Source: a bacterium
GTDB lineage: Bacteria; Patescibacteriota; Minisyncoccia; JACQLN01
Length of the DNA: 64,000 nt
Reading direction: 5' to 3'
Assembly (NCBI GenBank): GCA_030697795.1
Contig: JAUYOV010000006.1
Location: 21,722 to 85,721, forward strand
This document shows, in pieces, positions 3,551 to 55,818 of this stretch. The notes beneath the pieces are model-generated. The model was not told where the DNA came from. It was given only the letters and a program-made list of their open reading frames with translations, and did not search any database. Numbering within the stretch: the stretch's first letter is position 1; every line of letters starts with the position of its first letter. The position numbers were made by a program, and so were the translations under genes.

Positions 3551-3602
3551 ATACCTTTAGTACACCGAGCATACGATCGTATGCTCGGTGTACTAAAGGT
3601 AT
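3551..3602. repeat. family A palindromic element, copy A1 (perfect 52-bp palindrome, core GAGCATACGATCGTATGCTC)
   Basis: atacctttagtacaccGAGCATACGATCGTATGCTCggtgtactaaaggtat. Intergenic. Confidence 0.85.
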
Positions 3603-3773
3603 ACCCCTCGACTTCCCTCAATTTGACTCGGGACAAGGTCGCTCAAGGTAATCCCTCGTCGCTCTGCCCCCTCGGGATATTTTTCGCCCTTATTTTTATA
3701 TTATATTGTTTGCGAAAAACAAAACCCGCAAGGTTTGACCTTGAACGGGTTACCCGGAATACTCCGGAAGTGC

Positions 3774-4058
3774 TTACGCTCTATATCGTTTACTTTCACG
3801 ATAGACATTGCCGAGGGCAGTCATAAATTCCGAGCTACGCAAATTCTCTGCCAGCGCGGCACGCTTCTTTGAAGGAACGTCGCCGAGAAACTCATCAACA
3901 TGGGCGAGGACGTCATGCCTGTCGACTGGTTCACCCCGGTTCGCACGGTCTGCAAACTCCATTAAAACATCCGCTGTGGTCAGAGGGCGACCCAGCCGCT
4001 CTTTGAGATCTACGAGCATCTGTCTAGCCATTGATTCATTACTCTTTTGGTCTGACAT
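3774..4058 (-). CDS. hypothetical protein; local GC about 55% versus about 36% background
   Basis: Strong SD (aaggaggtaacagt-ATG on minus strand). Compositionally foreign. No recognisable domain. Confidence 0.45.
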   Translation of the reverse strand: MSDQKSNESMARQMLVDLKERLGRPLTTADVLMEFADRANRGEPVDRHDVLAHVDEFLGDVPSKKRAALAENLRSSEFMTALGNVYRESKRYRA

Positions 4059-4152
4059 ACTGTTACCTCCTTATTTTGGGGAAAGAACTATATATTTAGT
4101 CTAGAACAAGATTTACAATAAGTAAAGAAAGGTCATATTTTGAATTCAATAA

Positions 4153-4178
4153 CCCTACTTCGCTAAAGCTACGCAGGG
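4153..4178. repeat. family C hairpin element, copy C1 (ccctac-ttcgctaaagctac-gcaggg)
   Basis: Intergenic, downstream of ychF. Same loop sequence as the copies at 15395 and 43866. Confidence 0.7.
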
Positions 4179-4196
4179 CAGGCATTTCCACCTTTT

Positions 4197-5282
4197 TTAG
4201 ACTCTGAATTCAATCACGTCGCCGTCTTTGACGATATATTCCTTACCTTCAATGCGCAATAGGCCTAGATCGCGGGCTTTGGACCATGAGCCGGCTTCTA
4301 GGAGTTTGTCCCAGCGTATTACCTCGGCTCGTATAAAACGCTCTTCAAAGTCGGAATGGATGGCCCTGCCTGCACGAGGGGCTTTGGAATCAATAGGTAT
4401 AGTCCAAGCGCGGGTTTCGTCTTCGCCTGTGGTGAAGTAGGTCATTAAGCCCAAAGTTTCGTAGCTTTTGCGTATAAGCTTTTTTAAGCCAGTTTCTTTA
4501 ATGCCCGCCATTTCTAGTATTTCTTTTTTGTCGGCGTCAGTCGCGTTTGACGCGATTTCCTCAATCCCGATAGCTATGGCTAAATAGGGAATATTTCCAA
4601 GGAGTTTTTTTAAAGCTTCATCTGGTTGCCAGTTTTCTTCAAGTTCCGTTTCCGAAATATTAAATACAACCAGCATTGGTTTGTATGTTAAAATGCCGAT
4701 TTCGTAGGCGATTTTAATTTCGTCAGAATCAAGCTGGTCGTGGAGCAATTTGTTTTCTTCCAACAAATTTTTTATTTTCTGCAAGACATCTCGGCGTTTA
4801 ACTTTAATTTTGTCGCTCCGCCAGCTGGCGGATTTGGCTTCGGATTCAGCTCTGGTTAATGCTTTAGAAACTATGTCTAAATCTTTTAAAATTAATTCTA
4901 AATTTATGATTTCAAAATCCCGCACAGGATCTGGTGTGTTTTCTACATGTATAATATTGTCGTTTTTAAAAACTCTAACTAGGTGCAAAATAGCATCTAC
5001 ATCGCGAATGTTATTTAAAAATTCATTGCCTAAACCTAAGCCCTGCGAAGCGCCTTTTACTAAACCAGCAATATCGGCAAATTCTATTATGGCCGGCACG
5101 GTTTTTTTGGAATGAGAAAATTCGCTTAGTTTTTGTAAGCGTTCGTCTGGTATTGCAACCACGCCGATATTAGGGTCAATAGTTGCAAAAGGATAGTTAG
5201 CTATCACTACTTCCTTTTGGGTTAAGGTTTTAAATAGAGTAGATTTTCCAACGTTGGGTAAACCAACAATACCGATCTTCAT
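4197..5282 (-). CDS. ychF: ribosome-binding ATPase YchF (Obg-like GTPase family)
   Basis: MKIGIVGLPNVGKSTLF G1 motif and C-terminal TGS-like YIVKDGDVIEFRV. Start taken at the MKIGIV Met (5282). The longer ORF to 5339 reads through a GC-rich 5'UTR repeat. Confidence 0.88.
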   Translation of the reverse strand: MKIGIVGLPNVGKSTLFKTLTQKEVVIANYPFATIDPNIGVVAIPDERLQKLSEFSHSKKTVPAIIEFADIAGLVKGASQGLGLGNEFLNNIRDVDAILHLVRVFKNDNIIHVENTPDPVRDFEIINLELILKDLDIVSKALTRAESEAKSASWRSDKIKVKRRDVLQKIKNLLEENKLLHDQLDSDEIKIAYEIGILTYKPMLVVFNISETELEENWQPDEALKKLLGNIPYLAIAIGIEEIASNATDADKKEILEMAGIKETGLKKLIRKSYETLGLMTYFTTGEDETRAWTIPIDSKAPRAGRAIHSDFEERFIRAEVIRWDKLLEAGSWSKARDLGLLRIEGKEYIVKDGDVIEFRV

Positions 5283-5369
5283 GCATGCGAATAGCGCTCG
5301 CTCGTGCTTCGCACTCGCGAAATGCGAATGCGCCCACACGAATCAAATGCTATAATTATTCAAGATAAC

Positions 5370-6791: not shown

Positions 6792-6871
6792 AAATAGCAC
6801 GAGTCAGCGATCGCTGACTCGTGCTAAATGTTCTCCCTTAATACTCCCTTAGTAGTAAATAATAGTAAAAT

Positions 6872-8969: not shown

Positions 8970-10712
8970 TTATTTCTTTATTCTCTTAGTAGCGGTATGC
9001 CATTTATTTATATTTTCAAACCTTTGGGACGGAGTATTGATGGCTTCGGCATTAAGGCCTTTAATTTTTCCAGATACAGCATAAATATAATTTGGACTAT
9101 AAAGGAATATAGCTGGAATATCTTGCATTATTATTTTCTCAAAGGCCTCATAGTTTTTTATTCTTTTGGTTGGATTATTTTCTTGCCGGGCTGATTCTAA
9201 AAGGCCATCAACTTTTTTATTATTGTATAAAGCTAAATTTAAACCAGGATCTCTTCTTTGGGTAGAATGCCAGAAAGAGAATGGGTCGGGGTTTAAACTC
9301 AACACCTCTCCAAAAAGTATGGCTTGATATTGGCGAGGCCTAATATTTTGGGTTTGAATGCCGTTAACGGGCACAACATCTAAATCTACTTTAGCTCCTA
9401 TTTTTTCCCAGTTTTGCTTTAGAGCGCTGGCCACTTGAGTGTGTTCGGGCCAATCGGTTGTGGTTAAGGCAAATTCTAATTTTGTTATTTTTCCTTTTAT
9501 TTTTTTCTCTCTTAGGCCATCTGCGCCAACTTTCCAGCCAGATTTATCGAGCACGTTTTTAGCGGTCTCAATATCAAAGTCATACTTTGTGTTTGATTCA
9601 TTAATTTTTAAAAGCCCAAAAGGCAACGGGCCGTTTTGAATTTGAGCTTCTTCTTTTAAAATATCTTTTACTATATCTTCCTTGTCTGTAGCATAAGATA
9701 AAGCTTTTCTGACATCGGTTTCAGCTAAAACATCGGATCTAGTTTGGTTAAAGAATACACCGTAATATCTAGGAAGTTTTATGTCGTAAAAAATTAGATC
9801 TCTGGATTTTTTAAGTTCGGTTTTGTCTAAAACTGAACTCAAAGAAAAGCCATCAATTTCGCGGCGCTTAAAAGCGCTAACAAGGTCTTCTTGATTTTCG
9901 TAGAAACGGATTCTTAGCAGAGAGATATTTGCTTTTTCATAATAGCGCGGATTAGGAGAAAACTCCATAGACTTTATAATTCCCGAAGCATTTTTTGTTA
10001 TTTTTGTAACTTGATATTGGCCCAAGCCTACCGGTTTTAAATTGAGCTGGGTTAATAAAAAGTTTTGAGGCTGAACGTTTTCCCAAATATGGCGAGGGAG
10101 AATGCCCAAGGTAGCGTTTTCCAAAAAGGGTTCGTAGGCTACGGGTAATTTTATTATAAAGCTATGATCATCTATTTTTTCTATTCTGACACCTTGCCAG
10201 TTATTTCTAAGCGGGCTTTGAAACTTGGAATCCTTAATTAGGTTTATGGTAAAAACCACATCATCTGTTGTTAAGGATTTTTTATCTGGCCAGCTTAAGT
10301 TTTCCCTAAGCTTAAATTCATAAATTTTGCCGTTGTCTCTTATTTGATAACTTTCGGCGAGGTCCGGAATAATTTCTCCTTTTTCATTATGTTTAACTAA
10401 GCCCGAAAAAACTAAAGTGGTTAAATCGCGATCAACTTCGCTAGCCGAAGCCAAGGCGGGGTTAATATAGCGCGGTTCGCCAATAATGCCTTCGGCATAT
10501 GTACCGCCCTCGGAAGCAGCCGAGGTTCTTAAAAACCAATAATCATAAACGCCTAAAAATAGGGTAGAAGTAATAGCTAAGCCTAAAAACACTAAAACAG
10601 CGTTTATTTCTTTTTCGCTTAACTGCCTAAGCAAGTAACGCCAGTGTTTAACCGATAACGAACGCAAAAATTTTATACGTTCCCAAATTTTTTTAAATTT
10701 TTCTTTCAACAA
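8970..10712 (-). CDS. ABC-type peptide/nickel substrate-binding protein, family 5 (OppA/DppA-like), N-terminal TM anchor
   Basis: Length 580 aa. N-terminal hydrophobic anchor then a family-5 SBP-like sequence. No adjacent permease genes. Confidence 0.7.
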   Translation of the reverse strand: MLKEKFKKIWERIKFLRSLSVKHWRYLLRQLSEKEINAVLVFLGLAITSTLFLGVYDYWFLRTSAASEGGTYAEGIIGEPRYINPALASASEVDRDLTTLVFSGLVKHNEKGEIIPDLAESYQIRDNGKIYEFKLRENLSWPDKKSLTTDDVVFTINLIKDSKFQSPLRNNWQGVRIEKIDDHSFIIKLPVAYEPFLENATLGILPRHIWENVQPQNFLLTQLNLKPVGLGQYQVTKITKNASGIIKSMEFSPNPRYYEKANISLLRIRFYENQEDLVSAFKRREIDGFSLSSVLDKTELKKSRDLIFYDIKLPRYYGVFFNQTRSDVLAETDVRKALSYATDKEDIVKDILKEEAQIQNGPLPFGLLKINESNTKYDFDIETAKNVLDKSGWKVGADGLREKKIKGKITKLEFALTTTDWPEHTQVASALKQNWEKIGAKVDLDVVPVNGIQTQNIRPRQYQAILFGEVLSLNPDPFSFWHSTQRRDPGLNLALYNNKKVDGLLESARQENNPTKRIKNYEAFEKIIMQDIPAIFLYSPNYIYAVSGKIKGLNAEAINTPSQRFENINKWHTATKRIKK

Positions 10713-11872: not shown

Positions 11873-13261
11873 TTATTTAGAAATAGCTTTTCTATGCAAT
11901 TTTCTATGATAGTTTATAGCAAATCGGTGAGCTTCATCGCGGATTGATTGAAAAAGATATTTTAAGCTTCTGCCAAATTTTTGAGCCAGTATCGGTTCTT
12001 TATTTTCGGGCAAATAGATTTCTTCTAATTTTTTAGCTAAAGATACAACTCTAATTTTGGTGGGGGACAATATTTCTAGCGCTGCATTTAGTTGTGTTCG
12101 GCCGCCATCCACGATTATCAACTGGGGCAGTGTCCAGTTATTGTTTAATCTGCGTTTAATAATTTCGGCTATCATAGCGGGATCGTTTATACCGTGCACG
12201 GTTTTTATTTTAAATTTTCTATATTCGTTTTTATTGGATTTGTATTCGCCGTTTTCTTGCAGTTCAAAAACAACCATAGAACCCACGGCTTCTGCGCCTT
12301 GAAAATTAGAGACGTCAAACGTCTCTAATCTTTTTGGGTTTTCTTTAAAGCCTAGTAACGTAAAATCGGATTTGTCGTCTTTAAATATAGAAGGCGAAGC
12401 AAATTCAAATTTTTCGGTTAATACTTTGGTATGTTTTAAAACAGAATCAAGGTTTGTTATTTGGTTTTTAATAGTTTTAGCTAATTCAAAGTTTTGGTTT
12501 TTTATTACTTGTTTTATTTCTTTTTTAAATTCTTTAAGTAAAACTTGGCTTCGGCCGGATAGCACCGATTTAATTGCCCGAATGTTTTTTTTATATTCAT
12601 TTAGCATGAGTCTGCGATCGCTGGCTCGTGCTAAGTTTGTTGATTTAAGGCAACAGAAAGTTAAGCACCGGCCCATATGTGCATTTAAACATTTGGTCTC
12701 ATGTTTTTGCTTGCAGGTGCAGTAGGGAAAAATATCGCGTAAAATATGCAAAGTTTTTCTAACAGCAGTGCCGTCGGTGAAAGGACCTAAACAGCTTTTA
12801 GTTTTTAGCTTATAGCTGTTAGGTTGATGCAGAGGAATAATTTTAGGGAATTCTTCTTTAGCTTGCCCTGAGCCCGTCGAATGGGTAATAGCAACGTATA
12901 AATAGTTTTTACTATCACGCATTAAGACATTAAACTTGGGTTTGTGTTTTTTAATAAGCTCGGATTCTTTTATTAAGGCTGCTATTTCCGAGTCAGTCCG
13001 CAATATTTCTATATCGGTAATTTCGGCAAGCATTTTAACTTTTGCTGGATTAAAAAACTTAACCCCTTTGTGCTTGTCCTCCGAAGCTTTAGCGAAGGAG
13101 GAAAAGTAGCTTTTGACTCTATTTTTTAAATTCCCCGATTTGCCAATATAAATAATCTCGCCGGCTTTATTCTTGAATAAATACACCCCCGGCGAAGCAG
13201 GTAATTTGGCTAGTTTTTTAGTGATTGACAGCATTTTCATTATCTGGTAATAATAAGACAA
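11873..13261 (-). CDS. uvrC: excinuclease ABC subunit C, short form without C-terminal (HhH)2 domain
   Basis: GIY-YIG module GVYLFKNKAGEIIYIGKSGNLKNRVKSYF and RNaseH-like endonuclease motif DEAHRFAINYHR. True start probably a few codons inside (MKMLSI). Confidence 0.8.
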   Translation of the reverse strand: MSYYYQIMKMLSITKKLAKLPASPGVYLFKNKAGEIIYIGKSGNLKNRVKSYFSSFAKASEDKHKGVKFFNPAKVKMLAEITDIEILRTDSEIAALIKESELIKKHKPKFNVLMRDSKNYLYVAITHSTGSGQAKEEFPKIIPLHQPNSYKLKTKSCLGPFTDGTAVRKTLHILRDIFPYCTCKQKHETKCLNAHMGRCLTFCCLKSTNLARASDRRLMLNEYKKNIRAIKSVLSGRSQVLLKEFKKEIKQVIKNQNFELAKTIKNQITNLDSVLKHTKVLTEKFEFASPSIFKDDKSDFTLLGFKENPKRLETFDVSNFQGAEAVGSMVVFELQENGEYKSNKNEYRKFKIKTVHGINDPAMIAEIIKRRLNNNWTLPQLIIVDGGRTQLNAALEILSPTKIRVVSLAKKLEEIYLPENKEPILAQKFGRSLKYLFQSIRDEAHRFAINYHRKLHRKAISK

Positions 13262-13961: not shown

Positions 13962-16916
13962 ATGTCTAGCCAAGATTACATCAAAATCCGCGGGGCGAGG
14001 GTGCATAATTTAAAAAATGTTAGTTTAGACATTCCCAAAAACAAGTTGGTGGTTATTACCGGCCTTTCGGGTTCGGGCAAGTCGTCGCTGGCGTTTGATA
14101 CGCTGTATGCTGAAGGGCAAAGAAGATATGTAGAAAGTTTGTCGGCTTATGCTCGGCAATTTTTAGGCATTATGGATAAGCCCGATGTGGATTCCATAGA
14201 TGGCTTGTCGCCGTCAATATCCATAGACCAAAAAAGCGTATCAAAAAATCCGCGCTCTACTGTTGGTACTATTACCGAAATTTATGATTACCTGCGTTTG
14301 TTGTTTGCTAGAGTCGGCAAACCTCATTGCCCCAAGTGTGATCGCGTAGTTTCGCGCCAAAGTCCAACGCAAATAACAGATAAAATTTTAAAATTTAAAA
14401 AAGGCACGGCTTTAGTAATTTTGGCGCCAATCATTCGCGATCAAAAAGGTGAACACAAAGCAGTTATTATGAAGTTATCAAATTCCGGCTATGCCAGAGT
14501 TAGAGTTAACGGTGAAATTTTAAAAGTTGAAGAAGCTTTAAAATTAAATTTAGAAAGATACAAGCGCCATTCAGTAGAAGCTGTGATAGACAGAGTGACC
14601 CTAGAAAGTGATCCCTCCTCCTTCGCCCCCACTTCGCCAAGGCTACGAGGGGCAAGCAGGGCTTCGGAGGACAAGGATCTTCGTGCTCGCATTGCGGAAT
14701 CCATAGAACAAGCTCTTAAATTAGGTGACGGTTTGATGATTGTCCAACACCTGGTGTTGGACAAGTATTCAAAAAAGGACCGCCCTTCCAGGAAGGGCGG
14801 TCCTTCCGAGGAGCTGTTTTCCGAAGCGATGTCGTGCGCTTATTGTGGTATAAATTTTCCAAATGTTGAACCAAGATCATTTTCTTTTAATAGCCCGCAC
14901 GGCGCTTGCCCGCATTGCACAGGTTTAGGTAATACCAAAGAAATTGATCCAGATTTAGTTTTTCCAAGCAAGCATATAACTTTGGCGGAAGGCGCCATTA
15001 AGCCGTGGGCTTCGGCTTCGCACCGCGTCGGCTACCAAGGTTGGTATTGGAGTATTGTGGAAGAAATTTCGCAAAAATACAGTTTTTCAGTTTCGGTGCC
15101 TGTAAAAGATTTACCGCAAAAATTTATAAACATTATTTTATATGGTGACAAAGATCGCGATGGCGATTTTGAGGGAGTTATTCCAAATTTATTGCGCCGT
15201 TACCGCGAAACCGAATCAGAATTTACCAGAGCCGAGATAGAACGCTATATGATAGATAAGGTTTGTCCGGTATGTAAGGGCGCACGTTTAAAGCCAGAAG
15301 TTTTAGCGGTTAAGTTTTTAGGAAAAAATATTAGCTATGTGGCAGATTTATCTATAAATGAATGCAAAAAGTTTTTTTCGGAGATTAAAGGTGGCCCTGC
15401 TTCGCTAAAGCTACGCAGGGTAAACTTAACCCAATCGGAGCTTCAAATAACTTTGCCAGTAGTTAAAGAAATTTTAAACAGATTAGATTTTTTGCTAAAT
15501 GTCGGGCTAGATTATTTAACACTTTCTCGTTCTTCGGCTACGCTTTCTGGTGGTGAAGCTCAACGTATTCGTTTAGCTACACAAATTGGTTCTGGTTTAA
15601 CAGGGGTTCTATATATACTAGACGAACCTTCTATTGGTTTGCATCAGCGCGATCAAAATAGGTTAATTAAAACGCTTAAACATTTACGCGACATCGGCAA
15701 CACTGTAGTGGTGGTGGAACATGATGAGCAGACTATCAATAATGCCGATTGGGTGATAGATGTAGGGCCGGGCGCGGGTAAACACGGCGGTAAAATAGTT
15801 TTTGAAGGAACGCCTCAACAGCTCAAAAAATCAGATAGCATTACAGGGCAGTATTTGTCTGGAAGGAAGAAAGTAGAAGGTGGAAAATTGAAAACGGAAA
15901 AGAAAAATTTATCTTCTACTTTCCATAATCTACCTTCTATTGTTATCAAAGGCGCACAGGAAAATAATCTCAAAAACATTACAGTCAAAATTCCCTTGGG
16001 ACAGTTTGTAGCAATCACGGGCGTTTCGGGTTCGGGTAAGTCTAGTTTGGTAAACGATATTTTGGCTAAATTTTTATTGCAAAAATTTTATAATGCTAAA
16101 GAATCTCCCGGAAAATTTACAGAAATAACTGGTTGGGAAAATTTAGATAAAGTTGTGGTGGTAGACCAAAGCCCGATAGGCCGAACACCGCGTTCTAACC
16201 CAGCCACATATACCGGAATGTTTAGTGTTATTCGCGATTTATTTGCCGCCACGCGCGAAGCAAAAGTTAGAGGTTTCGGGCCAGGCCGGTTTAGTTTTAA
16301 TGTAAAAGGCGGCAGATGCGAAGTGTGCGAAGGGCAGGGGGTAAGAAAAATTGAAATGCATTTTTTGCCCGATGTTTATGTGGAGTGCGAAGAATGCCAT
16401 GGCACGCGCTATAACAAAGAAGCGCTAGAGGTGGAATACAAAGGCAAAAATATTGCTCAAGTTTTAAAAATGCCGGTGGAAGACGCTTTTGAATTTTTTA
16501 AAAATATTCCCTCGTTAAAACAAAAAATTGGAACATTGCTGGAAGTCGGTTTAGGTTATATGGAATTAGGCCAGCCGGCTACCACATTGTCTGGCGGGGA
16601 GGCTCAAAGAATAAAACTTGCCACAGAATTATCGCGGCGCGATACGGGCAAAACTTTATATAGTTTGGATGAACCAACCACGGGTTTGCATTTTGAGGAT
16701 ATAAATAAACTGCTTAGGGTTTTGCATTTGCTGGTTGAAAAAGGCAATACGGTTTTAGTTATTGAACATAATTTGGATGTTATTAGAACGGCGCATCATA
16801 TTATAGACTTAGGTCCAGAAGGCGGTAATGGCGGAGGCAAAATTGTAGCGGTGGGCACTCCGCAGCAAATCAGCCAAACTAAAAATAGTTACACTGGACA
16901 GTTTCTGCGTAAGTGA
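13962..16916 (+). CDS. uvrA: excinuclease ABC subunit A
   Basis: Two ABC ATPase modules ([23 protein letters not shown]; [13 protein letters not shown]), Zn-finger Cys clusters, LSGGEAQR signatures. 984 aa because of three in-frame palindromic-element insertions. Confidence 0.95.
14777..14803. repeat. family B palindrome, copy B2, in-frame inside uvrA (encodes [12 protein letters not shown])
   Basis: aaaaaa-ggaccgcccttcc-a-ggaagggcggtcc. Same flank as terminator copy B1. Confidence 0.85.
15395..15420. repeat. family C hairpin, copy C2, in-frame inside uvrA (encodes [10 protein letters not shown])
   Basis: ccctgc-ttcgctaaagctac-gcaggg. Stem fully compensated relative to C1 and C3. Confidence 0.8.
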
Positions 16917-16918
16917 TC

Positions 16919-16953
16919 GGAAGGACCGCCCTTCCAGGAAGGGCGGTCCTTCC
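16919..16953. repeat. family B palindrome, copy B3, immediately after the uvrA stop (35-bp near-perfect palindrome)
   Basis: ggaaggaccgcccttcc-a-ggaagggcggtccttcc. Marks the left edge of a GC-rich island. Confidence 0.85.
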
Positions 16954-17047
16954 TGTACTCAATATTGACATTATTGGCAAATATTTGCTATGTTTTATGA
17001 GTTCTTTTTTAACTAATTTCCCAAAACCCTTTATAATGGGAGGAACT

Positions 17048-18106
17048 ATGAAACTCGGATTTTACAGCTTTGACGTAGCTCCAGGAAACAACATAGCTAT
17101 ACTGGCGGCCGAAGCCAGAAGAAGGGGGCATGAGGTAGTTGATCCCGAGAAACAAAAGCCGGTTAGTGATAGAGCCATGGTTGAACTCATGACTTGCGAT
17201 ATGGTTGTAACAGGGCTTTCGTCTTTTAAAACGGAAATGGAGCTCGATGTTGCGCGTTATTTGAAAAATGAGACCAAGTGGGTTGTGTTGGAAGACGTGC
17301 CAGAATCTTGTCTGCGGCCAAAGGCGCGTGATTTTGCCAACAGGGCAGATTTACTTTTGATGGCTCCTCATACCAAACCGGAAGATGCTGCACGTTTTGG
17401 TTTTAGGAGAAATATCTGCTTGGGTCCGCCTCCGCTCTGGGGCAAGGAATACAACGAACTGATAGCGGCTAAAGAAGCTAATGTCCGACAGAATATGGAG
17501 AAGGTTGTTATGGGTGGCAACCCCATACAGCTTCAGACTAGTGATGTCGTGGTCGGCTTGGTGGGTGGAAAAGATTCACCAATAAACGATCTAGTTCTTG
17601 GGATGCTCATTCAGGCGTTAGCTGGTCATCATAAAGCCGTTGTTGGTTTTAGCCAACATCCTGGTGAGAAGGCTACAAAACCAGAAGATGAAGAGCGTTT
17701 TACGCGCGCTTTTCAAGAGCGGGCTGAAATGTTGAGCCGAATTTGGCATCTTTCTAAAAACTGGAAAGGTGTTGAAGTTGGGGCTGTAGCAGATGTGATG
17801 ATTTACGCCGGTGGCACCAACGCCAGTATTTCGGGCGCCTATGCTAGGATTCCTGGTATCTATCTAGATCTTCCGGAAGTTCGGGCAAGAATGGTAACAC
17901 AAAGCGGTAAAGAAACATGGTTTGTGGCTGAACTTGGTGGAGCGCTTGTTGTGGACAACAAGGAAGATCTTGGCCCGATGATCAAAACTGCATTGAGCAA
18001 TGAAGGGAGACAGTATCTGCTTGATATGCAAGAGAAAAATTTTCCATTGCCTGAAGATTGGCATACGGAAAAGAAGATCATCGATTATTTGGAGTGTTTA
18101 GTTTAG
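17048..18106 (+). CDS. hypothetical protein (about 352 aa), GC about 48-50%, compositionally foreign
   Basis: Long ORF. Start chosen at MKLGFYSF with a GGAGG upstream. The ORF 16913.. N-terminal extension overlaps the palindrome and is unlikely. Confidence 0.5.
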   Translation: MKLGFYSFDVAPGNNIAILAAEARRRGHEVVDPEKQKPVSDRAMVELMTCDMVVTGLSSFKTEMELDVARYLKNETKWVVLEDVPESCLRPKARDFANRADLLLMAPHTKPEDAARFGFRRNICLGPPPLWGKEYNELIAAKEANVRQNMEKVVMGGNPIQLQTSDVVVGLVGGKDSPINDLVLGMLIQALAGHHKAVVGFSQHPGEKATKPEDEERFTRAFQERAEMLSRIWHLSKNWKGVEVGAVADVMIYAGGTNASISGAYARIPGIYLDLPEVRARMVTQSGKETWFVAELGGALVVDNKEDLGPMIKTALSNEGRQYLLDMQEKNFPLPEDWHTEKKIIDYLECLV

Positions 18107-18158: not shown

Positions 18159-18318
18159 GTCCAAATGGCATAGTCAGCAATTTATGCGATCACATAAATT
18201 GCTGACCGGTGCTAATTATTGCAAGAAACTATACGACGCAAAATTTGGGTTGTCTTACTGGGGTTGACCCCGTTAGAGATCGCGCGGGCTCGTAGCGACC
18301 CCCCATCTCTAATTGGGG

Positions 18319-18346
18319 TTGACACCTTCTTGTATATACGTATAAT
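18319..18346 (+). promoter_or_regulatory. consensus sigma70-type promoter (TTGACA-16nt-TATAAT)
   Basis: Seen directly. Preceded by direct repeats ctggggttgac and an inverted repeat tagagat/atctcta. Confidence 0.55.
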
Positions 18347-18349
18347 GAA

Positions 18350-18846
18350 ATAGTTCACTAAAATAACACAGGTAGAGGTAATGGCGGGTCGCTTCAAGCG
18401 AACCTCACTAAAGGCGGGGCAGGGAACTCCCCTCCAGAGTACCAAACCCCGCTTGTAAGCCAAACAGGATTCCATATCGGGCTATGTCCGGTTTGGAATG
18501 TCCTCCCTCCCCACGATTCTCGTGAGTTGGGCGTGGTCCGATACCTGTTTAGCTGAAAGGCTGGATGCGACCGCTAGGCATCCAGCCCGAAATTAAAACT
18601 CTGCAAGGGCAGAGGATGTAGTTCTTTATAATTTTGTTTGGCCAGAAAGGTCTCTTGAAAACGAGTAGAGCTTTGCCTCTCGACCTCGTATTCTTCCCGG
18701 ATCTTTCTGGCCTTGTATAGTCGAGGAACTTTTACGGTTCATCTTCTCCTGTTCGTCTTTCTTCCTTTCAACGGATTGGGGTTGATTGCCGTGCAGAGGG
18801 AAGTTCCTCGCACTCCCGCTCCGACCTTGCGTCGGAGCGGTTTTTT
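18350..18846 (+). ncRNA. candidate structured non-coding RNA (about 500 nt), class unknown
   Basis: GC-rich (about 52%) segment with no convincing ORF, between a consensus promoter and a terminator. Multiple long-range complementary segments, e.g. ggccagaaag...ctttctggcc and ggctggatgc...gcatccagcc. Confidence 0.35.
18817..18846 (+). terminator. rho-independent terminator (copy 2)
   Basis: ccgctccgac-cttgc-gtcggagcgg + tttttt. Confidence 0.7.
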
Positions 18847-18911: not shown

Positions 18912-18949
18912 ACGTGTCCTGAGCATACGATCGTATGCTCAGGACACGT
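18912..18949. repeat. family A palindromic element, copy A2
   Basis: acgtgtcctGAGCATACGATCGTATGCTCaggacacgt, a perfect 38-bp palindrome. Same core as A1 with different compensated arms. Confidence 0.85.
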
Positions 18950-19143
18950 TTCAGAATTTATATACATATTAAAAAATCACTAGAAAAATTTAGAAAACCA
19001 AAAGAGCTTGACCCTAGTTCTAACATTTGCTACATTATCAATCGTAATAGAAGAGTGATAAAATCATTTAGATAATAGAGCATAGAAGGTGGAAAGTAGC
19101 TTTAAATCTATCTTCTAAAATCTACTTTCTAAATTTCAAACAT

Positions 19144-23079: not shown

Positions 23080-23273
23080 ACTATTTTTATTTCTCCCCAA
23101 TTATTTAGGGGAGTTTTATTTTTTTAAATATGATTGTTCAAGATGGTAAAGAACAGTCACTAATTTATGCTATAGCATTTTTTGATGACTATCATAGAGA
23201 TAGAAACAGCGTGACATCCGATGTCATTCAGCGGTGTTTATTATTTTACCCTTTATGTATATACTTTCTTTGT

Positions 23274-27019: not shown

Positions 27020-27137
27020 AATATCTTTGTGTAAAAGCAAGAACATCCTAATTTATTTAGGGTGTTTTTGAATTAGCCCTTAAAGAGTTGGTCAGCTCAA
27101 TTTGGTTGACCTACTGATACACTTTTGATACACTGAA

Positions 27138-27640: not shown

Positions 27641-27839
27641 TATTGTCTTTCGTATATAATATAAATCCCGCACCTTTTCAGAGTAAAACATTTATACGTT
27701 TAAAAGGTGCGGGATAAATAACATGTAGATGTGATCATCGCGCATTTTGGCAACGGTGGATAATTTTACGTGTGTTTGCTGTTGCAGAAAATATATTGTG
27801 TTATAATTAAAACAATTTACTAGTTCTAATTTTTTTAAC

Positions 27840-32301: not shown

Positions 32302-32318
32302 TCTAGATATTAAAGTAG

Positions 32319-34523: not shown

Positions 34524-34606
34524 TCAATGGAGATTAGAACTCAGGCGCACGACCTTTGGGTACGGTGCCTTTTTCTTTTGGGTTAAATTATTGCTACGAT
34601 TAAAGC

Positions 34607-35742: not shown

Positions 35743-35776
35743 GGTGTGGATAAGTAAGTGTCGCACAATGTAGCTT

Positions 35777-35832
35777 ATACGACATAGTCCATTAAGAAGA
35801 CAAGGCAAGAATGGGACTATGTCGTATAAGCT
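35777..35832. terminator. long hairpin (about 20-bp stem) between convergent genes
   Basis: agcttatacgacatagtcc ... ggactatgtcgtataagct. A second AT-rich hairpin follows at 35836-35890. Confidence 0.55.
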
Positions 35833-35919
35833 GGAAAATATTTTGCAACATTACTTTTTAAGTAACATCGCAAAATATTTTCTTATTAAATTAAGCTGTC
35901 CGTAACTCACCTGCTACAG

Positions 35920-37227
35920 TTATAGATAATCCAACGGGTTTAAAGTTTTCCCATAGTTATAACTTATACGTAACTCCCCCGTCTTGGGATCTTTATAAGT
36001 GAAAAACTCCGTGAACACAGAAAAGTGTAAATGGGGTCCAGTAACATTACCGCTAGCGCCTTCATAACCTAAAATATCCCCAACAGAAACTTCATCACCC
36101 ACAGATTGGCTAGAGATTTTAGACATATGAGAATATAAAGTTACCAAGCCTCCGGGGTGTTGAATTGCAATCCAATTGCCCCAATAGCCATTGCAAGAAG
36201 GCTTAATATAGTTTTGGCAGGATTCTAATCCTTTAGCAACAATTTTGCCTCCGGCTGCAGCTTTTATGGGGCTGGCTAAGCCAGCAGTTATATCTATGCC
36301 GTTATGTCCTTGACCGCCATAAGCACCCCGCCTAGCATATCTGGTTAAGCCATAACTTTGAGTAATTTTGGCGTTATCTTCGGGCCAAGCAAATATTTTT
36401 GTGCCGGCTCTAGGTATTGTTTCGGCTTGAAAATAACTGACAAAGTTTTTTTCAACTAAAATTTGTTCTTCTATTTTTGCTAAACGCGATAACAAATCAG
36501 CTTGCTGTTGTTCTACTTGGTTTAACAATTGTTGATATATCTGCTCTTGGCCTTTGGTTACCTTAAGCACTGTATCCTTTCTAGTTTTTTGTTCTTGTTG
36601 GGCAGATTTCTGAACAGATAATTGGGTATTTTTATTTTCCAGTTCTTTTTTATTTTCTTTTAAATTTACTTCTTTATTTTCTAGATTATTTTTTAACCGT
36701 CTGGTATCTTTAAGAACATCGTTCATTTTCTTTTGCAAAGAATCTAAATGTTCTGTTTGTTTTACAGCCTCGGTTAGGGTTTTATATTTTAAGGCTCTTT
36801 CTAACAAGCTCTCTTCATCAAACTTGCGAAGCTCTCTTAAGATGCTAGCTAAGACTTCTTGTTTTTCACCGATGCTAAGTTGGGTTTTTTCTATATCTGT
36901 TTGAGTTTCTTTAATATCAAGGCGAGTAATATGAATTTGGTTTTCGGTCTTTTTAATATCCAAATTAAGTTTGCTAATTTGGGTGGTTATAGTGGCTATT
37001 TCGTTTTTTAAAGAAACTACCTCTCCCCTTTTAGAATCCAAGTTTTTTTGGTATTCGGTAATTTTGGCCTCTAGTTCGTCAATATTATTTTGTAAATTAT
37101 CTCTCTCACTTTTCAAGTTATCTAATTGGTCAGCTTCGGCTAAATTAGGCACGGAAATTAATACCAAACAAAAAAAAGCCAAGAAATACTTCAAAATATA
37201 TGTTTTTCTAAACCTCATATTAGCCAT
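35920..37227 (-). CDS. M23 family metallopeptidase with N-terminal coiled coil (EnvC/LytM-like)
   Basis: Signal peptide, long coiled coil, C-terminal M23 motifs (HNGIDI..., GGKIVAKG, HLHFSV). Start uncertain (MANMRFRK). Confidence 0.8.
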   Translation of the reverse strand: MANMRFRKTYILKYFLAFFCLVLISVPNLAEADQLDNLKSERDNLQNNIDELEAKITEYQKNLDSKRGEVVSLKNEIATITTQISKLNLDIKKTENQIHITRLDIKETQTDIEKTQLSIGEKQEVLASILRELRKFDEESLLERALKYKTLTEAVKQTEHLDSLQKKMNDVLKDTRRLKNNLENKEVNLKENKKELENKNTQLSVQKSAQQEQKTRKDTVLKVTKGQEQIYQQLLNQVEQQQADLLSRLAKIEEQILVEKNFVSYFQAETIPRAGTKIFAWPEDNAKITQSYGLTRYARRGAYGGQGHNGIDITAGLASPIKAAAGGKIVAKGLESCQNYIKPSCNGYWGNWIAIQHPGGLVTLYSHMSKISSQSVGDEVSVGDILGYEGASGNVTGPHLHFSVFTEFFTYKDPKTGELRISYNYGKTLNPLDYL

Positions 37228-38993: not shown

Positions 38994-40106
38994 TCATTTG
39001 GCCAAATCCAAAAGGATTTGTGCCAGCTGGCTGGCTGCATCTATTTTAGCAAATTTTTTGGCATTTTCACTCATTGAATCTAACTCCGAACTGTTATTTA
39101 ATATTTTTTCAATTACTTCCTTTAGCTTGTCCAGTTCATTTTCTTTTAAAACAACAGCAGCCCCAGTTTTGGCATAAGAAGACGCATTGACCGGTTGATC
39201 TCCGTTTTTTCTTTCTAAGGGAATTAAAATGCTTGGTTTACCAAAAGCCGCCAGTTCAAAAATTGTTCCAGCACCGGCTCGACCAATGGCAATGTCGCAT
39301 AATGTATAAGCAGAAGCCAACTCTTTTTCGTTTAAAAATGGTACGATCTTTAAATTATTGTCCAACACCAGGTGTTGGACAGATTGATAATTAGCCGCGC
39401 CCACGCTCCAAATCATATTAAAATTTTCTAATAGATCAGGCAGTATTTTAAAAATAGCTTTATTTATTCTCTGTGCGCCTTGCGATCCCCCGCTAATAAA
39501 TATCGTACACCGAGCATACGATCGTAAGCTCGGTGTACTTTCCTTTGGTGGAAAATCAAGAATTTTTTCGGCTTCTTCTTTGGTTAAATCCAGATACTTT
39601 AATCTGACCGGATTACCTACTACCTGAATATTTTTGCCCGCGAAAAAATTCTTAGTTTCTTCAAAAGATACGACAATATTATTGGTTACATAAGAAAGGA
39701 ATTTATTAGCAAGCCCCGGTATTGCGTCGGACTCATGTATGATTATTTTCTTAAATAAAATTTCGGCAGCTAATACAGGTAAAACACTACCATAACTGCC
39801 CTTGCCCAAAACCACATCTGGATTTATCGAAACTACTATTATTAAAGATTGAAAAAATGCAAAAGGAATTTTAATAATTTCCCAAATATGTTTAAACGAA
39901 AAATATCGCCTTATTTTACCGGCGGCGATTATGGTTTTAACAATTACGCTTTCTTCTCGCAAGGCGTTTAGCGAAAATTCTTCTGGACCAACAAAATATA
40001 TTTTTGCCTCTGGCGCTAGTTTTTTGATGGCTCTAGCTACGGCTACCAAGGGTAAAACATGCCCACCAGTTCCCCCACCACAGAGCATTATCTTAGGGTT
40101 TTTCAT
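38994..40106 (-). CDS. murG: undecaprenyldiphospho-muramoylpentapeptide beta-N-acetylglucosaminyltransferase MurG
   Basis: MLCGGGTGGHVLPLVAVA, the ..ISGGSQGA.. G-loop. Carries an in-frame family A palindrome. Confidence 0.85.
   Translation of the reverse strand: MKNPKIMLCGGGTGGHVLPLVAVARAIKKLAPEAKIYFVGPEEFSLNALREESVIVKTIIAAGKIRRYFSFKHIWEIIKIPFAFFQSLIIVVSINPDVVLGKGSYGSVLPVLAAEILFKKIIIHESDAIPGLANKFLSYVTNNIVVSFEETKNFFAGKNIQVVGNPVRLKYLDLTKEEAEKILDFPPKESTPSLRSYARCTIFISGGSQGAQRINKAIFKILPDLLENFNMIWSVGAANYQSVQHLVLDNNLKIVPFLNEKELASAYTLCDIAIGRAGAGTIFELAAFGKPSILIPLERKNGDQPVNASSYAKTGAAVVLKENELDKLKEVIEKILNNSSELDSMSENAKKFAKIDAASQLAQILLDLAK
39505..39538. repeat. family A palindromic element, copy A3, in-frame inside murG (encodes STPSLRSYARCT just before the GGS G-loop)
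   Basis: gtacaccGAGCATACGATCGTAaGCTCggtgtac, one mismatch. Arms identical to A1. Confidence 0.85.
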
Positions 40107-40174: not shown

Positions 40175-40885
40175 CTAAGTTCTTGCATAACTCCTTGTTG
40201 CTAGCACTTTGGCTTTATCTCTTGGCGAAAACATTCCAAATAGGGCATAAGCCAATTGATCAAGGATTATTTTCCCTATCGGAGTTAGTTCAAATCCTGG
40301 ATCAGCGAAGTCTATTTTTTTTACAGTTTCTAGAAGTATAGTCTCAACTTCATTTCTCCGGCATGTGACTTGCCACTTATCATTTACTTCCCACCTTACA
40401 TATGCTTTTACAACTTCTGAAATAGTAGCTTCATATCCTTCTTCAGCCATTCTTATCGCAGCTTTTGCTGGACCAGATTGGCAAATAATTGCAGACAGTA
40501 TAGCGTAAGAAAAAGCTTGGCGAAACTCATGCTTTGATTGCCAGCCTGCGTCTATCAAAGCATTTGCCCTGAACAATCCAAGCACAGAACCTGCAAAAGA
40601 TTGAGCTGTGCCCAAGCCATTTCTAAAAATTTCGTCACTGAGCATTTCAACCCAGCTATAACCCCAAGTCGGTCTTAATGAAAGAGCAGTCACAATTTTG
40701 GCAGTTGCTTCTGGATTCAGATTTCCTAAACAGAATTGCAGTACTATATATTGTTGATCGCGAGCTTGCTCTTTGTTTTGGCTCAACGGATCATATGCGA
40801 TCAGTTGTTCAAATACAGCCATTAGGTCTTGGCGTGTATCATTTCCAAACAAGATTACCCCTAGTTTCTTTGTAATAGCATCCAT
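40175..40885 (-). CDS. hypothetical protein inserted within the dcw cluster (GC about 43-46%)
   Basis: No recognisable motif. Adjacent to palindrome A4. Confidence 0.45.
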   Translation of the reverse strand: MDAITKKLGVILFGNDTRQDLMAVFEQLIAYDPLSQNKEQARDQQYIVLQFCLGNLNPEATAKIVTALSLRPTWGYSWVEMLSDEIFRNGLGTAQSFAGSVLGLFRANALIDAGWQSKHEFRQAFSYAILSAIICQSGPAKAAIRMAEEGYEATISEVVKAYVRWEVNDKWQVTCRRNEVETILLETVKKIDFADPGFELTPIGKIILDQLAYALFGMFSPRDKAKVLATRSYART

Positions 40886-41007
40886 AACACCCTCCTCTCG
40901 AAGGTTTATTCCCTCTCGGGAATATGTGTCTCCTCTCGGAGACGGTTTATGTAAAGGAACTTATAGCGAAATACTAACCGATAATCATTAATTTCGTCAA
41001 GCACAAA

Positions 41008-41043
41008 CATACCGCGAGCATACGATCGTATGCTCGCGGTATG
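41008..41043. repeat. family A palindromic element, copy A4
   Basis: cataccgcGAGCATACGATCGTATGCTCgcggtatg, a perfect 36-bp palindrome. Confidence 0.85.
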
Positions 41044-41152
41044 CAGACAAAATAGATATAAATTTCTTTAATAATGCAATGGTCACTAAAAAATGCTATA
41101 GCATAAATTGTTGACCGTAGATATTTTGCCAGTTCCTTACTTTGAGTTACTA

Positions 41153-51655: not shown

Positions 51656-51696
51656 GGTATTTTTTTGATAGAATTTGAGGTTGAGTTGGTGATTTT

Positions 51697-53653: not shown

Positions 53654-54571
53654 TTATTTTTTAGCTATTAAAACCGCGTGAATTTTTAACGGTTCGCAAA
53701 TGACCTTGGTATTTTTGGGTTCAAAGCCAGCCGCCAAAGCCATATCAATTAGATCTTGAGGCGTTCTATATATCATTGGCCAACCTACCACGCGCGAAAT
53801 AAATTTCTGTTCCCGATTGTGAATTATATTAGCTGTTACAAAAATCCCGCCTGTCCGTAAGTATTCGTATATAAACGACAACAAAACTATTGTCTTTGTT
53901 TGATTAAAATAATCTAGAAGCCCAACCATTTCAATAATATCAGGGTTTTCACCATTGCGGTAATGCTTATAAAAATTACCAGCAGTATCTATTATCCATG
54001 ATAAATCGTACTTTTGTAATAAATCCCCTGCTAGACTTTTGCTATAGTCGGCAGCGGCTGGATTTTTATCTAAAAACTTAACTGAAATAGGCCTAGCGGG
54101 TAAATTTAGTGCTTGTAAAACTTCTATTACCGCTCTAGCCGAACCAGAAGCTATGCTAAGAATATTTATTGGTCTATTATCGTTGATTTTATTTACAGCA
54201 TCTATGGCTAGGCTTATTTCTTTTTTTGTTAATTTTAACCTGTTTCTTACAGCTAGGGAGTTATTAAGTACGCCAAACCAAACCAGGTGCGCAATTTTTT
54301 GGAATAATCCGTTGGAGGCGTTAGTTCGCCCGTGATTGTAAAGCACTTCTAATGCTCGGTGTGTCGTAGCGTGTTCTATAACTTCTTCGGCTGATTTATG
54401 CGATTTTTTTATATAGGTCTGAAAACTTTTAGGTAGCAAATTAAGTACTGATGTTATTACAAAACTCAAAGCTTTTCTGGCAGGACCACTGATCTCATAA
54501 CCGTTACTCTTATCGTTATCTACAAAAATCTTAACTCCCCGATATTCTCCTATCTGTAAAAGATTATTCAT
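53654..54571 (-). CDS. class I SAM-dependent methyltransferase-like protein
   Basis: ILSIASGSARAVIE (Gly-rich motif I-like) and Rossmann-like alternation. Confidence 0.5.
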   Translation of the reverse strand: MNNLLQIGEYRGVKIFVDNDKSNGYEISGPARKALSFVITSVLNLLPKSFQTYIKKSHKSAEEVIEHATTHRALEVLYNHGRTNASNGLFQKIAHLVWFGVLNNSLAVRNRLKLTKKEISLAIDAVNKINDNRPINILSIASGSARAVIEVLQALNLPARPISVKFLDKNPAAADYSKSLAGDLLQKYDLSWIIDTAGNFYKHYRNGENPDIIEMVGLLDYFNQTKTIVLLSFIYEYLRTGGIFVTANIIHNREQKFISRVVGWPMIYRTPQDLIDMALAAGFEPKNTKVICEPLKIHAVLIAKK

Positions 54572-54663
54572 TTTTATTGTTTATTATAACAAAAACACCC
54601 GTCTTTTACACGGACGTTAAAGCGAGAATGGATTTTACCATTCACCTATTTTCTTTTGAGGTT

Positions 54664-55218
54664 TTAAAATTGATACACGAAAATTTTCTTAACTAAACGG
54701 TTGTTTTCTCCTAAATTTACCATCCGAACAGGTTGCCTATTTTTAAGTGGAAAACTGCAGGAAATAACCCTGGTGCCAGATGCTAATTCTTTTTCTAGTT
54801 TGGATTCTAGTTGATCAAGGATTTTCGGATACAAATACATATAAATACACGTGGCTGTTGTTAGGTTTTCTTTAAAAATATTACCTCTACGGATTTTTAT
54901 ATTCAGGTTCTTATTTATAATCAAATTTATTTTCGCTAAAGTTATGGCAATCAGCGATTTATCTAGGCCAATGTATTTGGCTTCCGGTTCATTGCGAAAG
55001 CAGGCCATAAGCACTCGGCCGTCGCCACAGCCCAAATCATAAACTACATCATTGCTTTTTATGGCCATGGTTTTAACCACAGCTTCTAAAGCCTTTCGGG
55101 GCAGAGGTACATAAGGTGCTTTTATGTCCTTTATAAAGCTATACGAATATATAATATATAAAATAAAAATTAAAGAAACCGCTACCAAAGTTAATCCCAT
55201 AAAGACGATATCAAACAT
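54664..55218 (-). CDS. membrane-anchored class I SAM-dependent methyltransferase
   Basis: N-terminal TM. VYDLGCGDGRVLMA. Confidence 0.6.
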   Translation of the reverse strand: MFDIVFMGLTLVAVSLIFILYIIYSYSFIKDIKAPYVPLPRKALEAVVKTMAIKSNDVVYDLGCGDGRVLMACFRNEPEAKYIGLDKSLIAITLAKINLIINKNLNIKIRRGNIFKENLTTATCIYMYLYPKILDQLESKLEKELASGTRVISCSFPLKNRQPVRMVNLGENNRLVKKIFVYQF

Positions 55219-55230
55219 AAGTATAGTTTC

Positions 55231-55776
55231 TTATTTTCTATAAACCCAAAAGATCTCTTTTTGGCCAATAAGGTCAAAATTAAACATCGGGAAGCCGGCG
55301 CTAGCAATTATAGCGCCGGTTTTTAATTCTTTTTTAAATTTATCGCCCAATAAGGCGTTTACATAGTTTAACTGAAACAAATAAACAAGGTCGTATTGGC
55401 TTAAATCTGTTTTCCAAAAATCCCCTCTTATAATATGCGCATTTTTTAAGCCGGCACGTTTTATTTTGTATCGACTATACCAAACAAGTAGCGGATTAAA
55501 TTCTATGCCGTAGCTTTCAAAACCCTGTTTGGCAAATTCTATAACTACTCGCCCATCGCCCGAACCTATGTCTACGATCTTTTTAGCATTTTCTTTTTTG
55601 GCAATTTCAAATAAATCTTCTAAAACATTTTTTCTATTTTTTCTATAAGACGGCATAAACGGCGCGCCCGTAAAAAGAAGGGGCAAGCCCAAAAGCAAAA
55701 AAGCTAAACCCAGCCCAGTTAAAATTATAATTTCTAGAATAACTAAAAATGTCATTGTTGTTTTTCCTTCTTGCAC
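55231..55776 (-). CDS. membrane-anchored class I SAM-dependent methyltransferase (tandem paralog)
   Basis: N-terminal TM. IVDIGSGDGRVVIEFAKQG. Confidence 0.6.
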   Translation of the reverse strand: MQEGKTTMTFLVILEIIILTGLGLAFLLLGLPLLFTGAPFMPSYRKNRKNVLEDLFEIAKKENAKKIVDIGSGDGRVVIEFAKQGFESYGIEFNPLLVWYSRYKIKRAGLKNAHIIRGDFWKTDLSQYDLVYLFQLNYVNALLGDKFKKELKTGAIIASAGFPMFNFDLIGQKEIFWVYRK

Positions 55777-55778
55777 AC

Positions 55779-55818
55779 ATCATACATTGAGCATACGATC
55801 GTATACTCAATGTATGAT
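55779..55818. repeat. family A palindromic element, copy A5
   Basis: atcatacattGAGCATACGATCGTATaCTCaatgtatgat, one mismatch. Arms again different but self-complementary. Confidence 0.8.

Follow-up and report, generated by a model that had tools for sequence, protein, structure and literature searches.

Patescibacteria (Candidate Phyla Radiation, CPR) have small genomes with few recognisable regulators and mobile elements, and most of these bacteria are uncultured. Among the short palindromic repeats described in other bacteria, Rickettsia palindromic elements (RPEs) are about 100-150 bp long, and we know of no cognate flanked gene for them. The hairpins of repetitive extragenic palindromes (REPs) carry an asymmetric GTAG or CGTC tetranucleotide at one end (PMC3733652). 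As for proteins that recognise long inverted repeats, Escherichia coli PaaX binds TGATTC-N27-GAATCA and represses its own promoter (PMC9493321). In the present study, we analysed a stretch of 64,000 nucleotides (hereafter the window; contig JAUYOV010000006.1, positions 21,722 to 85,721) from a metagenome-assembled genome (MAG) of the Minisyncoccia, in which a first-pass annotation had noticed five copies of a palindrome with a 20-bp core, here called family A. With moderate confidence, we consider these copies to be solo members of a Patescibacteria-specific palindromic insertion superfamily, and the putative cognate sites of dimeric mini-PaaX proteins, whose genes are flanked by matching palindromes in related loci.

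Several findings carry this reading. First, the copies form a family. The whole window was searched for the core GAGCATACGATCGTATGCTC with up to 3 mismatches, and exactly five sites were found, three of them exact (3567, 18921 and 41016) and two with 1 mismatch each (39512 and 55789), whereas none of 100 dinucleotide-preserving shuffles contained a match. Five copies against none expected confirm the five places given by the first-pass annotation, and also its view that a propagated family, rather than a chance palindrome, had been seen. The extents measured from each centre outward (Table 1) agreed with those given for A2 to A5, and A1 was corrected from 3551-3602 to 3550-3603. The arms adjoining the core differ between copies, as had been stated (gtacacc in A1 and A3, gtgtcct in A2, ataccgc in A4 and atacatt in A5, the last having been given slightly off as cattga). 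Two copies of a sister variant had been missed and bring the window total to seven; these share the architecture of family A with another inner tetranucleotide (TCAG at 6795-6826). Aligning 33 distinct copies, including variants found later, gave the common plan RT-N5-GAG-N4-CGATCG-N4'-CTC-N5-AY, in which T at -16 and A at +16 are invariant; the typical element is 32-38 bp long, and the window palindromes measure 32-54 bp. Palindromy over 17 positions at the 161 GATC sites of the window was bimodal, with 8 sites scoring 14-17 and the rest at most 11. A 34-bp GATC-centred palindrome with 1 mismatch, composed of the halves GTCAGCAATTTATGCGA and TCACATAAATTGCTGAC and lacking the GAG...CTC frame, was also observed at 18173-18206, between the convergent open reading frames (ORFs) 16913-18106 and 18212-18475.

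Second, the arms vary and remain self-complementary, as the first-pass annotation had recognised. In the 15-pair stem of the 33 copies, 95.8% of the cells pair (74.7% in shuffled alignments), both sides are changed in 104 cells (30 in the shuffles), and two-sided changes occur in 11 of the 15 pairs. This last value was reached in 3 of 500 shuffles and the observed values of the other four of the five whole-structure measures in none of 500, and the signal collapses when the register is slid by 1-3 columns. Moreover, the arm types TAGCAY, GTATCAC and TCTCAC are each found with several different N4 cores. Folded as single-stranded DNA, the five family A copies have energies between -13 and -27 kcal/mol, and their z-scores lie between -7 and -14 (A1, -27.2 kcal/mol and z -14).

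The very stable folding of every copy would suit hairpins that act without any protein, i.e. terminators or 3'-end mRNA stabilisers like some REPs, kept by selection at the RNA level, with the mini-PaaX link being coincidental. The copy at 6795-6826, between the convergent phosphoglucomutase and RNase J genes, is followed on the minus (RNase J) strand by TTTTT, and this T-run is conserved in the related locus L005; the copy may serve as the RNase J terminator. This copy shows the GC-rich hairpin plus T-run of an intrinsic terminator and A4 shows it marginally, whereas A1, A2 and A5 do not. However, no T-run is found at five of the seven window copies, two of the seven lie inside ORFs (murG and uvrC), and termination requires no 20-bp core conserved across Patescibacteria classes. 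In addition, G-U wobble accounts for 11 of the 32 non-Watson-Crick cells and is not enriched. Since mutation alone, by a rough estimate, would give about this share, the pairing seems to be constrained at the DNA level or on both strands, and not as in an RNA made from one strand. Hairpins of purely RNA-level function are thus quite unlikely to account for the family.

Third, the elements have been inserted as discrete units and have spread. As the first-pass annotation had reported, copy A3 lies in-frame inside murG; it is translated as STPSLRSYARCT (residues 190-201), directly before IFISGGSQGA, and the extra 10 codons fall in the linker between the GT28 N-terminal (residues 6-144) and C-terminal (201-360) domains. 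Among 33 MurG orthologs, the segment before GGSQGA has 41 residues in most and 51 in the group nearest the window, which reads xxPSLRSYARxT and variants, and it is longer still in two other orthologs. The 10 additional residues are present in P0001, 2, 3, 5, 6, 8, 14 and 16 and absent from P0004, 9, 11, 12, 13, 27 and every more distant ortholog, and carriers and non-carriers interleave on a neighbour-joining tree from which the insert segment was left out. The insert DNA is also palindromic in three carriers, reading GTATACC-GAGCTTACGATCGTATGCTC-AGTATAC in L037 (which shares an A/T mismatch with the window and has one compensated arm change), having a CATC/CATA core in L039, and reading ATAGCAT-TAGTGTACGATCGTATACTA-ATGCTAT in the distant ortholog of L038. 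Because close MurG orthologs lack exactly those codons and the DNA of the carriers is palindromic, we conclude that this is an inserted element family; a conserved peptide encoded without palindromic DNA, which had been named as the alternative, was not what we found, as the encoders of SLRSYA-like residues also carry the palindrome. In two Yanofskybacteria MAGs syntenic with the window (L040 and L041), both the murG site and the A4 site are empty. Likewise, mnmA of L031 encodes exactly 10 residues more (LTSMRSHARE) than three orthologs, and this addition coincides with a perfect 38-bp palindrome (9201-9238, core GAGCATGCGATCGCATGCTC).

Copies between genes differ among relatives as well. The whole of a block of about 850 bp containing A1 (Table 1) is absent from L005, a syntenic Yanofskybacteria locus with 76-86% identity. 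A 40-bp stretch identical to A4 stands in an unrelated, GC-richer context in L016, and the A4 site in L010, L015 and L020 has the same core with the arms gtgtccc instead of cataccgc. In the slot downstream of phosphoglucomutase, the window carries TAGCAC-GAGTCAGCGATCGCTGACTC-GTGCTA (TCAG) and L005 carries TAGCAT-GAGCATACGATCGTATGCTC-ATGCTA (CATA), with five differences per half, all compensated, between conserved flanks. Four adjacent compensated changes are unlikely to result from point mutation and selection, and a swap by conversion or re-insertion is more likely. The degenerate copy in uvrC was rejected as a third proven insertion, because the orthologs differ in the length of this linker, which ranges from 70 to 84 residues. 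The nearest UvrC representative (P0241, 66% identity) has a longer linker insert with SYDRMRM, as a CATA-type palindrome in the same frame would encode, and might be a second slot with different variants. Regarding the unit of insertion, the idea that the arms are pre-existing target hairpins and only the core is mobile was rejected for the in-gene copies, as the net gain is 30 bp versus a palindrome of 34-38 bp, and a strict 4-bp target duplication was rejected because the GTGT...ACAC arms are inverted, not direct. A net gain of 30 bp with invariant T(-16) and A(+16) fits insertion between T and A or duplication of TA.

The surroundings of the window copies bear on a further explanation. A1 has on one side a terminator-like site belonging to a small GC-rich ORF (3743-3729, minus strand) and on the other an rpmA promoter-like site (3508-3479, minus strand). 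A2 is placed likewise, with a terminator-like site at 18816-18840 and a promoter-like site for groES at 19008-19036, and A4 is found downstream of ftsW, 7 nt upstream of a promoter-like TTGACG-18-TAGTAT for ORF 40175-40885. A5 fills most of the short spacer between the co-directional minus-strand genes for an acyltransferase (55826-56416) and a methyltransferase (55231-55776). The first-pass annotation had placed three copies next to GC-rich, foreign-looking ORFs. This holds for A1, whose neighbour (ORF 3774-4058, minus strand, 94 aa, no family match) has a GC fraction of 0.51 versus 0.39 for the window and belongs to the block absent from L005; it is weaker for A2 (ORF 18212-18475, 0.48) and does not hold for A4, as ORF 40175-40885 has a GC fraction of 0.40 and is conserved in relatives. 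A2 was ruled out as a CIRCE/HrcA operator: the CIRCE consensus is TTAGCACTC-N9-GAGTGCTAA, and A2 reads ACGTGTCCT-core-AGGACACGT about 195 bp upstream of groES. At the Rfam gathering threshold, the window gave two tRNAs only, and around A4 only sub-threshold generic hairpin matches were seen.

These positions might indicate an ordinary regulon, in which the palindromes are operators of a mini-PaaX factor that originated in situ, without any mobility, and the in-gene copies are incidental. A1, A2 and A4 do stand upstream of promoter-like sites, the upstream palindrome of the mini-PaaX genes abuts the -10 box, these genes are syntenically stable, and repressors of the PaaX family use long inverted repeats (PMC9493321). 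Nevertheless, we regard a regulon of this kind as unlikely, given the exact additions of 10 codons in murG and mnmA that close orthologs lack, the 40-bp identical copy of A4 in an unrelated context, and the copies that stand between two convergent genes, between members of an operon and within uvrC. Furthermore, complementarity reaches +/-17-27, past any plausible footprint, with the arm sequence not conserved, and the promoter beside A4 is intact in relatives without the palindrome. In other words, the scatter of the window copies fits dispersed repeats better than a designed regulon.

Fourth, the core recurs outside the window, as the first-pass annotation had proposed to verify. A search for the exact 20-mer in a species-representative collection of 596 Gb returned 10 loci, where about 0.5 would be expected by chance according to our arithmetic; six of these come from four Patescibacteria MAGs (Minisyncoccia, Saccharibacteria, Yanofskybacteria and 'Patescibacteria group'). 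Metagenomes gave 11 loci, nine of them from Hainich groundwater. The Patescibacteria copies differ in their arms and keep the complementarity. The remaining four genome matches and two of the metagenome matches were excluded from the family, as they are a coding segment (ESIRSYAL) without palindromic arms, conserved in one gene common to Eggerthellales, Oscillospiraceae, Christensenella and Coriobacteriaceae. In L003 (137-156; also in L004, L007, L009, L013 and L021), the identical 20-mer was observed inside the coding segment TPDIESIRSYALTKGT of a gene of about 160 aa, which on reading is a putative LytTR-type regulator and appears unrelated to the Patescibacteria elements. A phage origin was rejected, with no match to CACGAG-N4-CGATCG-N4-CTCGTG in viral contigs and no PHROGs match for mini-PaaX or the neighbouring small ORFs.

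Uptake motifs often occur as inverted pairs, and the uptake signal sequences (USS) and DNA uptake sequences (DUS) are found in intergenic hairpins and variable protein linkers. The present motif resembles them in being over-represented, common to several lineages and located in hairpins and linkers, and could have become enriched through biased uptake and recombination in Patescibacteria that are naturally competent. This explanation seems very improbable to us: the density is low (about 1 per 9 kb in the window, lower in relatives), the exact core occurs in only four species-representative Patescibacteria genomes, the N4 variants track the DNA-binding gene that they flank, and the additions are discrete 30-bp units, not a build-up of point mutations. 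Library artefacts can also yield perfect palindromes. However, assemblies made independently in different projects contain the elements, which stand in-frame in genes that are conserved and intact and show lineage-specific substitutions, and orthologous copies have an inherited mismatch in common, so that an assembly, adapter or chimera artefact can practically be dismissed.

Fifth, the palindromes are paired with a gene. In L001 and L008, two copies about 655 bp apart bracket an ORF of 190-193 aa, whose versions in a Minisyncoccia and a Saccharibacteria MAG share 78% identity. This ORF matches Pfam PaaX_M (PF20803, E 2e-24), weakly Cas2 and partially TIGR02277 PaaX. The product, termed mini-PaaX, has about 190 residues comprising a winged helix-turn-helix (wHTH) at the N-terminus and a Cas2-like dimerisation domain, after which it ends, without the C-terminal effector (phenylacetyl-CoA) domain. 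An AlphaFold model built from 42 homologs (mean pLDDT 73) was compared by Foldseek, which returned Cas2 structures, E. coli PaaX (8a39) and Rv0674. Homologs form 757 clusters (E<=1e-10), and the named sources are all Patescibacteria-type MAGs or unclassified 'bacterium' MAGs, often with several paralogs per MAG. Some sources annotate the family as Cas2, and PADLOC gave weak Cas2 matches only. CRISPR-Cas was ruled out, as the arrangement is a gene with one palindrome on either side, the two being about 650 bp apart, and the loci contain neither an array nor Cas1. Neither the window nor the 41 fetched loci yielded a related insertion sequence or transposase, and no HUH/RAYT, Y1_Tnp or other transposase was found among the 58 window ORFs scanned against Pfam. 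The suggestion of the first-pass annotation that a cognate protein be sought was sound in spirit, although its candidate, a RAYT or HuH TnpA, was not the protein found.

All mini-PaaX genes with readable flanks are bracketed by palindromes conforming to the common plan, with one common N4 per gene (Table 1). This agreement of N4 on both flanks of six genes, with four N4 variants, also speaks against protein-independent hairpins, which could otherwise draw on the position of the downstream palindrome at the 3' end of the mini-PaaX mRNA. In eight of nine genes, a (TGn)TATAAT-like box follows the end of the upstream palindrome at a distance of 9-20 nt, this palindrome being disrupted in the ninth (L022), and the downstream palindrome overlaps the stop codon in six of eight, TGA being formed by the last arm base and the GA of GAG. 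In L022, at about 1590-1650, GAGCATA was seen to be parted from CGATCGTATACT by the 17-nt taatactaccaaacaca, with the downstream TGATATAAT box intact. The paralogs are diverged (60-80% identity) and occupy stable syntenic positions, e.g. between mnmA and alaS. In L001, L022 and L031, mini-PaaX is at the same syntenic place next to mnmA, yet the flanking N4 is CATA, CTTA and ATAA, respectively; because one place holds these three variants, the protein and its sites have changed together in place.

For the genome of the window itself, the link is indirect. The MurG protein of the window is MDP3764546.1, and the locus-tag prefix of the MAG is Q8Q95. Three accession-contiguous mini-PaaX proteins (MDP3764181.1, Q8Q95_01005; MDP3764261.1, Q8Q95_01430; MDP3764784.1, Q8Q95_04155) would, to judge from the spacing of accessions and locus tags, be encoded by this MAG on three other contigs. 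One of them (P0130, Q8Q95_04155) has 76-81% identity with the CATA-associated proteins and, like these, the motif EWQ at residues 47-49. The five proteins paired with a non-CATA N4 have EWK, including that of L022, which is 80% identical to that of L001. This pattern among nine proteins suggests a specificity contact.

Herein, from the observed spread of the elements and their pairing with mini-PaaX genes, we infer how they might be bound and multiplied. A mini-PaaX dimer would bind GAG-N4 half-sites, with the N4 tetranucleotide setting the specificity, and would repress or tune its own promoter; the upstream palindrome stands where the operator of an autoregulator would be expected. The solo copies would be extra binding sites and structural hairpins, and at least one of them has probably been co-opted as a terminator. 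Perfect hairpins or cruciforms can form from the elements, the family has spread as units of about 30 bp, and intrastrand pairing might matter either for making the copies or for recognition. Mobilisation by the Cas2-like domain of the candidate cognate protein is possible. A bolder form of the proposal, which we find doubtful, is that these are undescribed replicating palindromes, mobilised and recognised by a wHTH-Cas2-like protein (a non-HUH analogue of RAYT) with a co-evolving 4-bp code, which insert or exchange hairpin units of about 30 bp between T and A, also in-frame in essential genes. If true, the mobilising role would amount to Cas1-independent DNA insertion by a Cas2-fold protein.

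Several points weigh against the reading of solo insertions as cognate sites of mini-PaaX. On the side of the protein, tblastn gave only chance-level matches to mini-PaaX in the window, the three Q8Q95 genes are assigned to its MAG solely through contiguous accession numbers, and the statements on flanking palindromes refer to the mini-PaaX members with readable flanks in related loci. The correlation of Q and K with N4 comprises nine proteins only. Divergence combined with stable synteny suggests a family of regulators more than an active transposase, and catalytic activity of the Cas2-like domain cannot be inferred. On the side of the DNA, the elements conserve their centre and vary in their flanks, the reverse of the operator layout of E. 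coli PaaX, and the terminator-like scores of 6795-6826 and, marginally, of A4 mean that selection for termination could explain part of the compensation. Finally, the target-site signature is ambiguous between the two forms of TA target, and a 4-bp palindromic target suits some copies and fails for the GTGT...ACAC arms.

Table 1. Palindromic elements, host genes and associated block in the window, and inner tetranucleotides (N4) flanking mini-PaaX genes in related loci
Feature	Window position	Strand	Description
A1	3550-3603		54 bp, perfect; arms ...TATACCTTTAGTACACC, core GAGCATACGATCGTATGCTC
A2	18912-18949		38 bp, perfect
A3	39505-39538		34 bp, 1 mismatch; N4 CTTA in one half, CATA in the other; in-frame in murG
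A4	41008-41043		36 bp, perfect
A5	55779-55818		40 bp, 1 mismatch
Sister-variant copy	6795-6826		TAGCAC GAGTCAGCGATCGCTGACTC GTGCTA, 32 bp, perfect
Degenerate sister-variant copy	12601-12634		TTAGCATGAGTCTGCGATCGCTGGCTCGTGCTAA; in-frame in uvrC, translated NLARASDRRLML
murG, host of A3	38994-40106	minus	Pfam GT28 N- and C-terminal domains
uvrC, host of degenerate sister copy	11873-13261	minus	
Block of about 850 bp	3349-4196		holds A1, TATGCTATAGCATA palindrome and GC-rich ORF 3774-4058
Flanking N4, L001, L008, L018			CATA
Flanking N4, L017			CATA, upstream side only (contig ends)
Flanking N4, L030			CTTA
Flanking N4, L026			ATGG
Flanking N4, L031			ATAA
Flanking N4, L022			CTTA, degenerate; upstream copy split by 17-nt insertion
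Flanking N4, L034			AATG, CTCCAG centre (degenerate)

Other features of the window were also observed. Next to A4, the 5' leader of ORF 40175-40885 (40890-40975, minus strand) contains three consecutive GAGA-tetraloop hairpins, gtctccGAGAggagac, attcccGAGAgggaat and ccttcGAGAggagg, the last of which sequesters a GGAGG Shine-Dalgarno sequence. This leader is nearly invariant in L010, L015, L020, L040 and L041, although the ORF is only about 28% identical, and it has no Rfam match (PhotoRC-I, 13 bits, being chance level); it may be a cis-regulatory leader outside the known families. A second palindrome family, GTCAC-N7-TATGCTATAGCAT-N7-GTGAC, occurs at 3507-3548, 23155-23190 and 41081-41116, with its 14-mer core found three times versus 0.24 expected; two copies lie within 1-40 bp of A1 and A4, and in L002 a similar TTATGCTATAACATAA lies 17 nt from the palindrome. 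A third, GC-rich family, (A)AGGACCGCCCTTCC-N-GGAAGGGCGGTCCT(T), occurs at 3025-3059, 14775-14805 and 16919-16953, of which one copy stands behind the L9 gene and resembles a bidirectional terminator, another lies within uvrA (near residue 271) and another overlaps both the uvrA end and the beginning of the following ORF. A fused restriction-modification enzyme of 897 aa and MmeI/Eco57I type is encoded at 59264-61957 (minus strand), adjoined by a SocA/Panacea-domain antitoxin-like gene (58655-59191, minus strand), and CGATCG/GATC is part of the palindrome core. The cumulative GC skew has its peak near 27-28 kb and the genes change from mostly plus to all minus strand at about 35.8 kb, so that a replication terminus region fits at about 27000-36000.

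We could not find the arrangement of a palindrome with a cognate mini-PaaX described in the literature, where searches returned neither the core sequence nor PaaX in combination with the Candidate Phyla Radiation. If the proposal is true, a widespread system of repeat and cognate protein would provide a new handle on how Patescibacteria genomes are regulated and reshaped, and would account for the 10-residue inserts that recur in essential enzymes, among them MurG and MnmA. It would also correct the 'Cas2' annotation that some sources give to members of the 757 clusters, which may inflate apparent CRISPR content. Moreover, a 4-bp code that changes jointly on both flanks of each gene would offer a natural series for studying the evolution of protein-DNA specificity.

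Compared with known systems, the elements resemble MITEs (miniature inverted-repeat transposable elements) in being small, non-autonomous inverted-repeat DNA that is present or absent at orthologous sites. Unlike a MITE, each element is a single palindrome from end to end, not a body enclosed by terminal inverted repeats; it is far shorter than typical MITEs, and neither a parent insertion sequence or transposase nor a clear target-site duplication was found. With the PaaX repressor of E. coli and Pseudomonas, the flanked gene shares the wHTH and the Cas2-like central domain (PF20803; 8a39), and the palindrome shares the nature of a long inverted repeat overlapping the promoter of the regulator. 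However, the C-terminal effector domain is missing from mini-PaaX, the operator of PaaX conserves its outer hexamers around an N27 spacer where the elements conserve the centre, and the element sites are dispersed and inserted, also into coding sequence. The first-pass annotation had likened the palindromes to REPs and their bacterial interspersed mosaic elements (BIMEs) or to RPEs. Membership of either group did not hold, given the lack of a GTAG/CGTC head, the lack of a transposase among the 58 window ORFs and a length far below that of RPEs. The likeness to RPEs is nevertheless real in that both occur in-frame in conserved genes (here murG and mnmA of L031, 10 added residues each) and between genes, add a peptide at a tolerated surface or linker position, and reside in small, reduced genomes, whereas the present elements add about 30 bp net and have no sequence relation to RPEs. 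The system of REPs, their doublets (REPINs) and RAYT transposases differs in that its flanked gene encodes an HUH Y1 transposase instead of a wHTH and Cas2-like (PaaX_M) protein, while the present elements are symmetric to the centre with RT...AY on both sides, show no REPIN-like doublets, stand also in-frame in essential genes and belong to Patescibacteria. Yet the two look alike in several ways. The present elements, with seven copies in 64 kb of which two lie inside ORFs, fit in size the short (20-40 bp), dispersed and mostly intergenic palindromic repeats of that system, and in both cases individual copies may have been recruited as terminators or as binding sites for proteins. In both, a single-copy and vertically inherited gene is flanked by its own repeat variant, with different gene lineages pairing with different variants.

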